In this document: piece by piece, positions 4,321 through 30,452 of the stretch
Layout of the letters: each line of letters begins with the position of its first letter
How positions within the stretch are numbered: the stretch's first letter is position 1
Assembly (NCBI GenBank): GCA_038858525.1
Contig: JAWCFL010000004.1
Coordinates: 1-32,000, forward strand
Source: Candidatus Jordarchaeales archaeon
Lineage (GTDB): Archaea; Asgardarchaeota; Jordiarchaeia; Jordiarchaeales; Freyrarchaeaceae
Reading direction: 5' to 3'
Length of the DNA stretch: 32,000 nt
The notes under the pieces: generated by a model
Database searches by the model: none
What the model was told of the DNA's origin: nothing
The model's input: the letters and a program-made list of their open reading frames with translations, nothing else
Translations under genes and position numbers: made by a program

Positions 4321-6531
<2,211 letters not shown>

Positions 6532-26422: not shown

Positions 26423-27100
26423 TTAAGAAATGATCCTTTTGGTAAGCTTCTCGACTATTCTGTCCCAGAGAGCGGTGTGCTCCGCGTCCTTGTTGTAGTT
26501 TATCTTTGTTCTATTGAGTTCAAGGGCGCCGGGTGCCGGACAGGCGTAGACGCATAAGCCGCAAAGCAAGCATTTGTTTTGGTCCACTTGGACTCTGGGA
26601 ACTTTCTCCCATGGCTTCTCGGGCTTCGGAATAGTTATAGCTTCGTTCGGGCAAACTTCAGCGCAGGTTGAGCATCCAGCTGGGCACAGCTCCCAGTGTG
26701 CAATCAGCTCGCCCTCAGCGTATTTTTTCGCCCTCCGATTCCCTCTAAATGTGACGAACTCCTTGTATTCGAGGGGTGGGAGGGCTCCTTCCTCTACCAA
26801 TATCAGCTTAGGTTCCCCGTTGATCCTGAGCTCTAAGGCTTCGAAGGGGCACATGTACGAGCATACGCCGCAGAAGCTGCACTTCTTTTCGTTAACCAAT
26901 ACTGGAGGAAGCTTTGCTTCTCCCTTACCGAAAGCGCCTACTGGCCCTCTCTCTATAGCTTCCTTCGGGCAGACAATTGTGCATGTGCCACACCCGACGC
27001 ATTTGTTTAGATCCAAAGTTAACGTTACATCAACGTCAAGAGTTTTCATCCGGGTGACTACCTTATCCTCCTTAACTTCGGAAGCATAGTAAGGGTACAC
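26423..27100 (-). CDS. Polyferredoxin, shortened FwdF-like (4 x [4Fe-4S])
   Basis: Four CxxCxxCxxxCP-type motifs. GPVGA and CPFEALELRING match the recalled FwdF N-terminus; EGEL, PKPEKPWEK and RTKIN..LW match its C-terminus. Confidence 0.75.
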   Translation of the reverse strand: MYPYYASEVKEDKVVTRMKTLDVDVTLTLDLNKCVGCGTCTIVCPKEAIERGPVGAFGKGEAKLPPVLVNEKKCSFCGVCSYMCPFEALELRINGEPKLILVEEGALPPLEYKEFVTFRGNRRAKKYAEGELIAHWELCPAGCSTCAEVCPNEAITIPKPEKPWEKVPRVQVDQNKCLLCGLCVYACPAPGALELNRTKINYNKDAEHTALWDRIVEKLTKRIIS

Positions 27101-27110
27101 TCAAACCACC

Positions 27111-27368
27111 TCACTTAGCAACCTTCAAGCTTATTGCTTTAGGGCCACACGCCTCAATACATATGCCGCATCCATCGCAGAAACTCTGATTTGACACTAT
27201 TGCTTTTCCATTCCTGACAATTATAGTGTAGTTCTTTATGTCCCCTCTCATTTCAGGAGGCAAACTGGCATTGTGAGGGCAGGCGACCACGCAGTCGTTG
27301 CAGCCGACGCAAAGAGCGGAGTTTATGTGTAACTTGTAAACGTTCATACTCTTATACGCTTCCATCAT
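27111..27368 (-). CDS. 2[4Fe-4S] ferredoxin, FwdG-like
   Basis: CVGCNDCVVACPHN..IIVRNG..CDGCGICIEACG, 85 aa, directly upstream of the fwdF-like gene. Confidence 0.8.
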   Translation of the reverse strand: MMEAYKSMNVYKLHINSALCVGCNDCVVACPHNASLPPEMRGDIKNYTIIVRNGKAIVSNQSFCDGCGICIEACGPKAISLKVAK

Positions 27369-27607
27369 TTTTTAATTCCTCCTCGAAGCATCTAGAAGTC
27401 ATTAACAGCCCACTCGCTACCACAACGTGAGTGGCTTACTCCTTAAAAAAATTATGTGCCATAGAGCCAAAAAACGCTGTGATCCCTGAAACGTTAAGCT
27501 TCTGTTCACCGCGTGAAAACCAACGAAGAATGTCTAGACAAAATAAAATAGAAAGAGACTATTTTCCCCCTTGTTAATTTTAAAAGGAAGTATAGCTTAC
27601 CGTATTC

Positions 27608-27892
27608 ATGGAGGGTTTTTCCATGGCAGACGCGAAGAAGGTAATCGCAGTTGATCGCAAAGTGTGCTGGGGATGTGGCAACTGCATCGAGGCATGTCCC
27701 TTTAACCCAGGGAACAGGCGAGTTCCGTTAATCTGGATGAAACACGCCCCAATTTTGCGCTTGGTTAACGGTGCATGTAGCGTGGTGAGTGATGCCTGCT
27801 CGGAACTGCTTCCAGACTGCAAGGCATGCGAAAGAATTTGCCCGACAGGCGCCCTAAAAATACTCATAACCTCCATGGATACCTTAAAGTAA
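27608..27892 (+). CDS. 2[4Fe-4S] ferredoxin, second FwdG-like
   Basis: CWGCGNCIEACPFN..LRLVNG..CSELLPDCKACERICP. The start may be the ATG at 27623. Confidence 0.75.
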   Translation: MEGFSMADAKKVIAVDRKVCWGCGNCIEACPFNPGNRRVPLIWMKHAPILRLVNGACSVVSDACSELLPDCKACERICPTGALKILITSMDTLK

Positions 27893-28035
27893 TTTTTTCT
27901 CTTCTCTCCGAGGCGTGAAAAAGTTTTTTAATGAAAAGAATGGAAAAGTTGGCTTGAAGCGCTAAGCGTTATTGTTAGCCTTCAGCTGGATAGCTGCTAT
28001 GAGAAAGCTACTTTGTTGTGTATGGAGGGTTAAAG

Positions 28036-28437
28036 ATGGCTAAAAAAAAGTCGCTTGAAATGACCCTTGTAACGTGCAGGACGATTAGTCAGGGTGCCGC
28101 CCGAGAAGGGGAAAAAATGGGATACGACTACCAGAGGGCTTGCGGCGTGTGTTATATGGACTACGAAGATATGAAGCTACTGGATATTCTTCCGGGAGAC
28201 TGTGTCTCGGTAAAGTCGCCTCACGGTGAAGTGGTTCTCCGCGTGGAAAGGTCTAAGGACGAGCCTCACAAGGGAATACTTGTCGTACCACTAGGACCAT
28301 GGGCGAACAAAATAGTGGATCCCGAGACCCACTCGACGGGCATGCCCTCGCTAAAAGGGATACCTGTGATCGTGGAGCCAACGTTCGAATCAAATGTACC
28401 AAGCATCAAAGAGTTGATAAGTGCCCTTAAATCATAA
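28036..28437 (+). CDS. fwdD: Formylmethanofuran dehydrogenase subunit D (molybdopterin dinucleotide-binding)
   Basis: LVTCRTISQG, V.SPHGEVVL, VPLGPWAN and ETHSTGMPSLKGIPV. ATG at 28036 follows GGAGG. Confidence 0.9.
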   Translation: MAKKKSLEMTLVTCRTISQGAAREGEKMGYDYQRACGVCYMDYEDMKLLDILPGDCVSVKSPHGEVVLRVERSKDEPHKGILVVPLGPWANKIVDPETHSTGMPSLKGIPVIVEPTFESNVPSIKELISALKS

Positions 28438-28506
28438 CCAAAATCGTTATATTCCTCTCCAATCTTGTGAACCCTGATTGTTTTCACCCTTTAAGTTGGA
28501 GGTTTC

Positions 28507-29820
28507 ATGATGCCTCGGGAAGTCATAACGGATGTTGTCTGCCCTGTGTGCGGCTCTCTATGCGACGATATTTCGGTGATATTTGGTGATGGTGGGAGGA
28601 TTATAGAAGTTGAGAATGCCTGTTCAGTTGGTGCCAGCAAGTTTCTTAGTGCTCAGAGCGAGCACCGCCTCAAAACCCCCCTAATGAGGAAGAATGGGTC
28701 CTTCGTAGAGGTTTCTTTGGAGAAAGCCGTCAAGGAGACGGCTAAGCTTCTAGCTAACGCTGAACGCCCGCTTCTCTATGGTTGGAGTAATGCTGAGTGC
28801 GACGCTCACAGAGTGGGGCTTGAGCTGGCTGAGGAAGTAGGTGGAATAATAGATAGCACTACGACGACGTGCCATGGCCCATCCGTCCTTGCAATTCAAG
28901 AGGTGGGTTGCCCCACATGTACTTTGGGTGAAGTCAAGAATAGGGCGGACGTGATAATCTACTGGGGTGCTAACCCAATCCACGCTCACCCTCGTCACAT
29001 GTCGCGCTACACCACTTTTCCGAGAGGCTTCTTCAGAGAGAAGGGTGAAAAGGATCGGACGATAATCGTTATCGACGTGAGGCGGACGGATACAGCTAAG
29101 CTAGCCGACTACTTCCTCCAAGTTAAACCAGGATACGACTATGAGATCGTAGCAGCCATGCGTGCGCTCCTCAAGGGGCACTCCATTAGTGTGAGTGAAG
29201 TGGGCGGAGTTCCCACTTCTAAGATCAAAGAAGTAGTCGAAGTGATGAAGAACGCAGGGTTCGGCGCTCTCTTCTTCGGCATGGGGCTCACAATGACTAG
29301 AGGCAAACACCGAAACATAGACAACGCGATAAGCCTTATCGCAGACCTCAATTCGTTCGCAAAGTGGATACTGATGCCTATGCGTGGGCATTATAACGTA
29401 AGCGGCACAGGCGAAACCTTTTCTTGGGTTACAGGGTATCCATTCGCTATAGATTTCCAGAGAGGATTCCCATACTATAATCCGGGCGAGACCACCGCTA
29501 TAGACCTGCTGATGAGAGGCGAGGTTGACGCCGCACTAATAGTAGCAAGCGACCCCGTATCCCACTTCCCCGCAGCGGCCGTAAAGCACCTCACCAGGAT
29601 CCCAGTATCAACTATCGAGCCTCACCCAACGCCAACAGTCGAGATCTCAAAAATAGTGATTCCGCCAGCCATTGCAGGAATAGAAGCTGAAGGGACCGCT
29701 TATAGGATGGACCATGTGCCAATCCGGCTAAGAAAGATAATTAACCCACCAGAAGGATGCCTCCCTGACAAAGAAATCCTCGAAATGATACTTGACGAAG
29801 TAAGAAAAATCAAGAAATAA
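28507..29820 (+). CDS. fwdB: Formylmethanofuran dehydrogenase subunit B (W/Mo-bis-PGD catalytic subunit)
   Basis: CPVCGSLCDD..C cluster, TTCHGPS metal ligand (Cys codon TGC, not Sec), CTLGEVKNRAD, WGANP.HAHPRHMSRY, MRGHYNV and GTAYRMD. Confidence 0.95.
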   Translation: MMPREVITDVVCPVCGSLCDDISVIFGDGGRIIEVENACSVGASKFLSAQSEHRLKTPLMRKNGSFVEVSLEKAVKETAKLLANAERPLLYGWSNAECDAHRVGLELAEEVGGIIDSTTTTCHGPSVLAIQEVGCPTCTLGEVKNRADVIIYWGANPIHAHPRHMSRYTTFPRGFFREKGEKDRTIIVIDVRRTDTAKLADYFLQVKPGYDYEIVAAMRALLKGHSISVSEVGGVPTSKIKEVVEVMKNAGFGALFFGMGLTMTRGKHRNIDNAISLIADLNSFAKWILMPMRGHYNVSGTGETFSWVTGYPFAIDFQRGFPYYNPGETTAIDLLMRGEVDAALIVASDPVSHFPAAAVKHLTRIPVSTIEPHPTPTVEISKIVIPPAIAGIEAEGTAYRMDHVPIRLRKIINPPEGCLPDKEILEMILDEVRKIKK

Positions 29821-29926
29821 CCCTTTCATTTTCTTCCATTAAGCTGGCTATTCATAGCGGCAAGAACACGAATTAAAGAATAACGGATCAAAGAATAAAA
29901 TGTGTCCTTCCCCTTTTCAGTTTCTT

Positions 29927-30349
29927 TTACTCTGATCTTCTAAGTCTGCTGAAGAGCTCTTTTAGCTCAGATTGAAGTTGCATTCTTGCGCTAGCAGGGC
30001 TTGGGGGTGCCCTCGAGGCGCTTGCCGGCTTATCTATTGCAGGCGCCATTGCCGGCGTCCTCGCCGTTACAGTCGGTGCTGATCTTATCTCGTGCTCAGG
30101 GGCATATTCTCTTTCGGGTGACTGTAACGGAGAAGCCGATGGTAACGGTGGGGGCGAGCTTGCCTTAGCTTCTAAAATGCTTATTTTTCTTTCAAGGGAC
30201 CTTATTTCGTTGTCCAACTGGTTTATTCTGTCTTCAAGCAGACCTACCGCGTTAAGTATTATACCTATGAGTCCCGTCACTATTTCAGCTAACTGCTTAA
30301 GCTTTTTACTTTCCCCAAAATCTATCATAAACTCTATGTCGTCGCTCAA
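29927..30349 (-). CDS. Hypothetical protein: N-terminal coiled-coil helix, proline-rich linker, C-terminal amphipathic WH2-like helix
   Basis: 140 aa with a TTG start after AGGAG. Heptad helix at about residues 15-61, 14 Pro in residues 66-118, then SARMQLQSELKELFSRLRRSE. Confidence 0.7.
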   Translation of the reverse strand: MSDDIEFMIDFGESKKLKQLAEIVTGLIGIILNAVGLLEDRINQLDNEIRSLERKISILEAKASSPPPLPSASPLQSPEREYAPEHEIRSAPTVTARTPAMAPAIDKPASASRAPPSPASARMQLQSELKELFSRLRRSE

Positions 30350-30452
30350 CAGGCACCGTCTCCTTTAAAACCCAAAGATACCCTTCCCCCCATAACTAAT
30401 AAAGTTTTTCGGAAAAGTAAGCATTCTGGGTCCTGAGGATGGGGGTGTAAGC

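Follow-up and report, generated by a model that had tools for sequence, protein, structure and literature searches.

The 140-aa protein encoded near the end of the window (the whole 32,000-nt stretch of Jordarchaeales DNA analyzed here) is a member of an undescribed and unnamed Asgard-wide family, new to the databases and the literature that we searched. It is small, nearly universal among Asgard archaea and composed of a coil, a Pro-rich arm and a basic end helix, which makes it a concrete candidate that can be tested cheaply. By analogy with eukaryotic proteins we tentatively propose that the family works as an Ena/VASP-like multivalent cofactor of actin assembly, a proposal that we would place a little short of even; the protein is a candidate for experiment and not yet an actin regulator.

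The ORF lies on the minus strand at positions 29927-30349 including the stop codon (TTG start, TAA stop), and full-length orthologues are known. Because orthologues with 96-40% identity are found in Jordarchaeia/Freyarchaeota, to which these close relatives are restricted, and because 227 of 301 Asgard genomes contain a match to the family profile, the ORF is a real gene. It is a solitary minus-strand gene between two plus-strand genes, which, as judged from their synteny with an orthologous contig of Jordarchaeales, encode a molybdopterin oxidoreductase (formylmethanofuran-dehydrogenase-type subunit) and a LarA-like protein. Inspection by eye revealed three putative expression signals on the minus strand: a Shine-Dalgarno-like GGAG 10 nt upstream of the TTG codon (30360-30363), a candidate archaeal promoter ~50 nt upstream of the start codon in which a purine-rich, BRE-like GAAAAAC is followed by a TATA-like TTTATTA (30397-30410), and a T-rich run, TTTTATTCTTT, ~27 nt past the stop codon (29890-29900) that may be an archaeal terminator. 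Positions 26423-29820 of the window hold a cluster of 4Fe-4S ferredoxin-like ORFs followed by two molybdopterin-related genes, for which synteny with locus L001 indicates a molybdopterin-binding subunit and a molybdopterin-oxidoreductase subunit, both of the formylmethanofuran dehydrogenase type. The cluster has no connection with the 140-aa protein.

Exhaustive searching of 1.8 billion representatives with phmmer added a few distant relatives with an identical layout, and a profile search extended the family to Helarchaeota and Lokiarchaeota proteins. Among high-quality genomes, 76 of 90 were matched by the profile, and the matches were mostly full length and located in ORFs of 125-200 aa. 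One lineage seemed to be without the family, with 2 of 21 genomes positive by profile, but was positive in 19 of 22 genomes when the end motif alone was used as the query. The members from this diverged lineage are ~200 aa long with very Pro-rich linkers that include LPPLPG. All family members that we found are from Asgard archaea. No family name was found in Pfam, NCBIfam or Protein Atlas, where the neighbors were unnamed Asgard clusters without any named protein, and our literature search returned no publication on the family. The genome that carries the window has a single copy; weak second matches on its contigs 13, 10, 4 and 1 were generic coiled-coil ORFs and not paralogues. Tandem paralogues occur in Helarchaeota. 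In one such locus (L004), two adjacent, diverged and likely co-transcribed copies (5595-5999 and 6001-6438, plus strand) are flanked by a gene with V4R and Roadblock domains, a gene for a 1123-aa helical protein and an ORF that looks Roadblock-like by eye.

An AlphaFold2 model of the 140-aa protein, built with a 49-sequence alignment, predicts a helix at residues 2-64, disorder at residues 65-117 and a second helix at residues 118-139. The pLDDT was 97-98 over residues 20-60, below 50 in the linker and 92 in the end helix. The model confirms the architecture of helix, Pro-rich linker and terminal helix that a first-pass annotation of this DNA had described, including the long amphipathic helix, for which its limits (residues 17-60) were slightly too short. 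Its reading of the translated ORF was also borne out, as the protein contains both PPPLPSA and the tail ARMQLQSELKELFSRLRRSE, and a recount of residues 66-118 gave the reported 14 Pro, in 53 residues. On the minus strand of the window, the N-terminal helix (residues 2-64) occupies positions 30158-30346, the disordered Pro/Ser/Ala-rich linker with PPPLP (residues 65-117) positions 29999-30157, and the conserved C-terminal amphipathic helix (residues 118-140, P.SARMQLQSELKELFSRLRRSE) positions 29930-29998. Both the sequence and the length of the linker vary among orthologues.

The N-terminal helix probably oligomerizes as a coiled coil, as judged from the AlphaFold2 model, from conservation and from profile matches in the PDB, which were mainly to trimeric coiled coils. 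Three parts can be distinguished in it: a head, SDDIEFMIDFG, that is acidic and aromatic; a wide hydrophobic face formed by residues 17-38; and a stretch of regular heptads (I42/L45/I49/L52/I56/L59) containing an R-h-x-x-h-D motif. No position of this helix is invariant among 49 diverse members. In the window protein alone, residues 20-38 are hydrophobic enough to resemble a membrane helix. Since distant members of the family have Lys, Asp or Asn in this part, a transmembrane helix was ruled out, and we take the helix to be amphipathic.

The first-pass annotation had aligned residues 17-60 with the WHD of human WAVE1 and had likened the tail to a WH2 motif. When PDB sequences were searched with the family profile, no chain of WAVE1 was detected at E values of 10 or less, despite the presence of entry 3p8c in the library, whose chain E (BRICK1) was matched. 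Neither the protein nor the family gave a match to a WAVE-family Pfam entry. The non-heptad residues proposed as a WHD signature, G29, N33, R41 and N43, are kept in 5, 21, 18 and 16 of the 49 members, respectively. For WH2, we did not detect a PF02205 match at E values up to 10 with the whole protein, with residues 110-140 alone or with the LKKV peptides of the Heimdallarchaeial long forms described below, using HMMER, whose filters can lose very weak matches. The LKK[T/V]-type element that WH2 domains have behind their amphipathic helix would correspond to L136-R137-R138-S139 of the window protein, but its Leu is poorly conserved: position 136, the L of 'LRR', is Arg in 23 members, Met in 13 and Leu in 10 of 49. 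WHD and WH2 membership thus fails, because the proposed residues are not conserved, no WAVE1 chain and no WH2 match was found, and Leu 136 is mostly replaced. As judged by these comparisons, the N-terminal helix is not a demonstrable WAVE/SCAR homologue and the tail is not a WH2 domain.

The likeness to the WASP family is one of order. WASP-family nucleation-promoting factors have an N-terminal assembly helix, a Pro-rich region and WH2-C-A, and the Asgard protein likewise runs from an assembly helix through a Pro-rich linker to a terminal helix, as WAVE/SCAR and WASH do. Its layout thereby supports the earlier view that the modules are ordered generally as in eukaryotic actin-assembly factors. 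In contrast to the WASP family, the Asgard protein lacks a Trp-containing acidic tail, in addition to the missing profile matches and the poor conservation of the proposed WHD residues.

CCDC53 (WASHC3), BRICK1 (HSPC300) and HSBP1 are small trimeric coiled-coil subunits or assembly factors of WASH/WAVE complexes. They are similar to the family in size and in having an N-terminal helix, and they appeared in several of our searches at or near threshold. The window protein scored 23.5 bits against PF10152 (CCDC53), for which the Pfam gathering threshold is 24.6 bits; its coil alone scored 14 bits, and 22-23.5 bits were reached only when the Pro-rich linker was included. The N-terminal helix of one Heimdallarchaeum orthologue scored 25.5 bits, which is above the cut-off. 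BRICK1, which shares an EIIT...LN stretch, was the third match in an hmmsearch of the PDB (E = 0.021 over residues 18-66) and stood there among other trimeric coiled coils. HSBP1 was the best match for the most diverged Jordarchaeial members, and a Foldseek search of 550,129 Swiss-Prot models returned human WASHC3 as the top match (E = 0.27). In CCDC53, too, the helix precedes a linker of low complexity and then a C-terminal region that is conserved, and the tandem paralogues of Helarchaeota could make hetero-oligomers. These observations would favor the reading, in our view a very unlikely one, that the family is truly homologous to CCDC53, BRICK1 and HSBP1, though very diverged, and belongs as a subunit to an archaeal precursor of the WASH/WAVE regulatory complexes. 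Nearly all of the scores lie at the threshold or below it, and they are not mutually independent. At E < 0.1, PF10152 matched 8 of the 49 members whereas Baculo_PEP_C matched 15, and many further coiled-coil families were hit as often as CCDC53 or more often. An hhalign comparison with a BRICK1 fragment gave 64% probability, but the aligned part comprised only 26 generic heptad columns. For primate CCDC53/WASHC3 the probability was 5.8% over 28 heptad columns (0.8% with a second alignment) and BLASTP against CCDC53 produced no alignment, in comparisons whose power is low since the CCDC53 sequences were mammalian only. The C-terminal motifs of CCDC53, BRICK1 and HSBP1 are unrelated to that of the family, and no link of Asgard archaea to these proteins was found in our literature search. 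Because the signals are not mutually independent and fail the controls, homology to CCDC53 or BRICK1 is unproven; across the family, the scores appear indistinguishable from generic coiled-coil similarity.

The most conserved part of the family is the tail. Among the 49 members, E128 is present in 48, L129 in 49, K130 in 45, F/L133 in 49 and R/K137 in 48, and in the whole protein it is only this C-terminal core, ELKxL[F/L]..[R/K], that is near-invariant. A variable linker followed by a near-invariant end helix is characteristic of a docking motif on a tether. The same combination of an oligomeric or folded core, a variable disordered linker and a short, highly conserved docking motif at the end is seen in tethered-peptide hubs of prokaryotic cytoskeletal and translation systems, such as the FtsZ C-terminal peptide, the CdvA E3B peptide, the ribosomal stalk P1 and the ESCRT-III MIM, to which the family has no sequence relation. 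Two specific readings of the tail were discarded: a PIP box (QxxLxxLF), as the Gln is kept in 24 of 49 members, and an RPEL motif, for which the spacing does not fit.

We compared the end helix with the F-actin-binding motif of human VASP (GLMEEMNxxLARRRK; printed as residues 259-278 in PMC10340426). With hhalign, the end-motif profile aligned to VASP 259-278 over 23 columns with P = 6e-4. The HMM score of 8.5 bits to the VASP motif was reached by 4 of 5000 shuffles and also by the best random ORFs in a background of 6236 ORFs. When identities were counted without gaps over the 16-residue core, 9 of 55 tails matched, three at 8/16 and six at 7/16, all from two lineages (e.g. LMGELKSLLAARRRKT); in a background of 8757 ORFs (1.24 million residues), none reached 8/16 and 17 reached 7/16. 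The tail of the window protein itself has 4/16 identities, which is the background level. We regard the likeness to the VASP F-actin-binding motif as a real but modest lead at the level of the family, picked post hoc.

Further motifs are present in ~300-aa orthologues from Heimdallarchaeota AB_125, Ca. Heimdallarchaeum aukensis and Ca. Heimdallarchaeum endolithica, which keep both the N-terminal helix and the end helix (L069:1501-2430 and L089:1516-2454, both on the plus strand, and 20 more loci within L070-L093). Four conserved inserts were recognized between these two helices: DLMKAAxxLQKAPE, in one or two copies; SAxDIQDVRxGL[T/K]KVDPDEHRKER; ALNxEVKDALAKRKSR, which repeats the end-helix motif and has a basic tail; and an acidic stretch, DDDEDDF. 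The long forms contain two or three conserved motifs made of a helix and L[KTQ]K[VA], their L[KT]K[VI] motifs lie elsewhere than in the tail, and their linker has GAPNLSAAP repeats. In the AlphaFold2 model, every insert forms a short helix, behind which LKKV is extended. All four are absent from the window protein. In their order, the inserts recall WH2-WH2-C-A or the GAB-FAB arrangement of Ena/VASP, and the added elements (LKKV-type motifs, then a basic amphipathic helix, then an acidic stretch) follow the V-C-A order of the WASP family. At the level of profiles and structures we detected no counterpart: no motif peptide or long form matched WH2 or thymosin in Pfam, PDB profile searches found no WH2-bearing chain, and Foldseek of the long-form model gave only noise. 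In the comparison with the VASP G-actin-binding motif, whose KLRK core the AKLKKV-type motifs recall, only AKLRKVS/AKLKKVD aligned, over 7 columns (P = 0.067, not significant). A different Heimdallarchaeial protein of 926 aa (L180:458-3238, minus strand) has at its N-terminus about ten tandem ~30-aa repeats of the motif made of a helix and L[KTQ]K[VA], here KQDLQSEIRDxKxGLKKVSxSEKKH, and at its C-terminus TPR repeats; it has no Pfam WH2/thymosin match, and its gene adjoins one for an Arf-like GTPase (L180:3278-4249).

A terminal amphipathic helix with a basic tail, preceded by a flexible linker, could also bind lipid. The end helix would then be a membrane-targeting helix like those of MinD and FtsA and would tether the coiled-coil partners to the inner face of the membrane. 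Its hydrophobic moment is ~0.45, and a Heliquest-type lipid-binding discriminant is 0.75 for the window protein, with a family median of 0.78. The discriminant exceeds 1.34 in 16 of 55 members; in 13 of 55, however, it is below the lipid-binding threshold, and taken together the values speak neither for nor against membrane binding. The helix also contains the near-invariant E128 and frequently a second Glu, and the Heimdallarchaeial long forms have LLESDTQEEE, an acidic tail, on their terminal copy; these features argue against a membrane tether. We consider this role quite unlikely.

Nor does the end helix seem to be a partner of its own chain. Were it to fold back on the N-terminal helix, against the broad hydrophobic face, it would close the protein into a self-contained helical bundle, structural or autoinhibited, whose tail has no external partner. 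Such a bundle would explain why residues 17-38 are hydrophobic at heptad positions a, d, g and c, beyond the need of a simple coiled coil, why the two ends always co-occur and why the pLDDT of the tail is unusually high for an isolated helix. Linkers of 50-150 residues are a better fit to tethered ligands, as is the second copy of the tail motif that the long forms have, and no charge complementarity between the two ends is kept across lineages. The chance that we would give to a fold-back is a faint one.

Gene neighborhoods bear on whether the docking partner would be actin. Clustering of the neighborhoods of 41 loci from ~20 lineages revealed no operon conserved across lineages, and within them the family gene is not linked to actin, profilin or gelsolin genes. 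The end helix might instead dock on a different machine that is conserved in Asgard archaea; the MIT domain of Vps4/ESCRT, small GTPases and Roadblock proteins are examples. In that case the family would act as a multivalent adaptor unrelated to actin. L129-x-x-L132-F133-x-x-L136-R137 fits a MIM1-type helix at five of six positions, the consensus of which we take to be L-x-x-R-L-x-x-L-[KR], and the near-invariant acidic-basic pair E128/K130 suggests specific recognition of a protein. This fit is broken by the 23 of 49 members with Arg at position 136. A Vps4/ESCRT-II/Snf7 cluster lies 4-5 kb from the family gene in two lineages (L051:11806-14375 and L052:11766-13697, the ESCRT-II gene being Vps25-like and the Snf7 gene present in L051 only), but these are only two of ~20 lineages, and in both loci sugar-metabolism genes intervene. 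An apparent Vps4 cluster across the loci was set aside, since it was composed mostly of ~750-aa ORFs that we took to be CDC48-type AAA ATPases; true Vps4 was present in 3 loci. In 14 of 41 loci, Ras/Arf-family GTPase genes are no more than 4 kb away, and the Helarchaeota pair has Roadblock-like genes as flanking neighbors. As small GTPases are very numerous in Asgard genomes, the 14 of 41 may reflect chance. On balance, we judge an adaptor unrelated to actin to be unlikely.

The partners that the actin reading calls for are encoded in the same genome, as the first-pass annotation had expected for actin and profilin. Actin was found at 466 bits, together with two gelsolin-domain ORFs. The profilin orthologue (contig 1, 7138-7542, plus strand) was missed by a direct PF00235 search and was identified, at E = 1e-40, through another profilin, which is from a genome of the same order and clears the Pfam cut-off. 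A weak PF00235 match on contig 13 was not counted as profilin, as it looked Roadblock/LC7-type by eye. According to the literature, Asgard archaea have dynamic actin, and the regulators named are mainly gelsolins and profilins; we found no description of a dedicated Asgard actin-assembly factor or of a native polyproline ligand for Asgard profilins. Profilins of the Loki, Odin and Heimdall LC2 types are reported not to bind polyproline (PMC8410842).

In the preferred reading, that of an Ena/VASP-like cofactor, two or three chains would come together through their N-terminal helices, probably in a parallel coiled coil, and each would contribute a flexible Pro-rich arm of 50-150 residues ending in the conserved basic amphipathic helix. 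Oligomerization would create multivalency, the terminal helices would dock on actin, and the Pro-rich arms may recruit profilin-actin. We infer all of these properties: oligomerization, binding to actin and profilin, and the effect on filament assembly.

Ena/VASP proteins are composed of an EVH1 domain, a Pro-rich region and an EVH2 region with a G-actin-binding motif, an F-actin-binding motif and a tetramerizing coiled coil. Like them, the Asgard family would combine an oligomerizing coiled coil, a long disordered Pro-rich region and a basic amphipathic helix, which in some Asgard lineages reads GGGGLMGELKSLLAARRRKT where it was compared with the human VASP motif. On these grounds Ena/VASP rather than WAVE/SCAR would be its closest functional analogue. 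The two differ in that the family has no EVH1/WH1 or VASP_tetra match in Pfam and no homology at profile level, and in that its coiled coil is N-terminal whereas that of VASP is C-terminal; the window protein, in addition, lacks an LKKV-type motif and has a tail with background identity to the F-actin-binding core. By sequence, homology of the family to WAVE/SCAR, WASH, CCDC53, BRICK1 or Ena/VASP could not be demonstrated. A broader version, in which it is the archaeal counterpart of both Ena/VASP and WASP-type factors (by descent or convergence), a coiled-coil oligomer with arms and tail that bind profilin-actin and filaments and with WH2-/connector-like and acidic motifs added in Heimdallarchaeia, seems to us possible but doubtful.

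If the family binds actin, VASP/WASP-like regulation would have originated before eukaryogenesis. Were the actin-factor reading true, the family would be the first actin polymerization-promoting factor outside eukaryotes and a native polyproline ligand of Asgard profilins. Should the partner be other than actin, the family would still be a new conserved hub protein of Asgard archaea. A second Pro-rich sequence was observed in the genome that carries the window: a 198-aa ORF on contig 3 (74376-74972, minus strand) contains a perfect (FPPP)5, a polyproline tract resembling EVH1 ligands, in a protein that by eye resembles the PadR-type winged-helix proteins.
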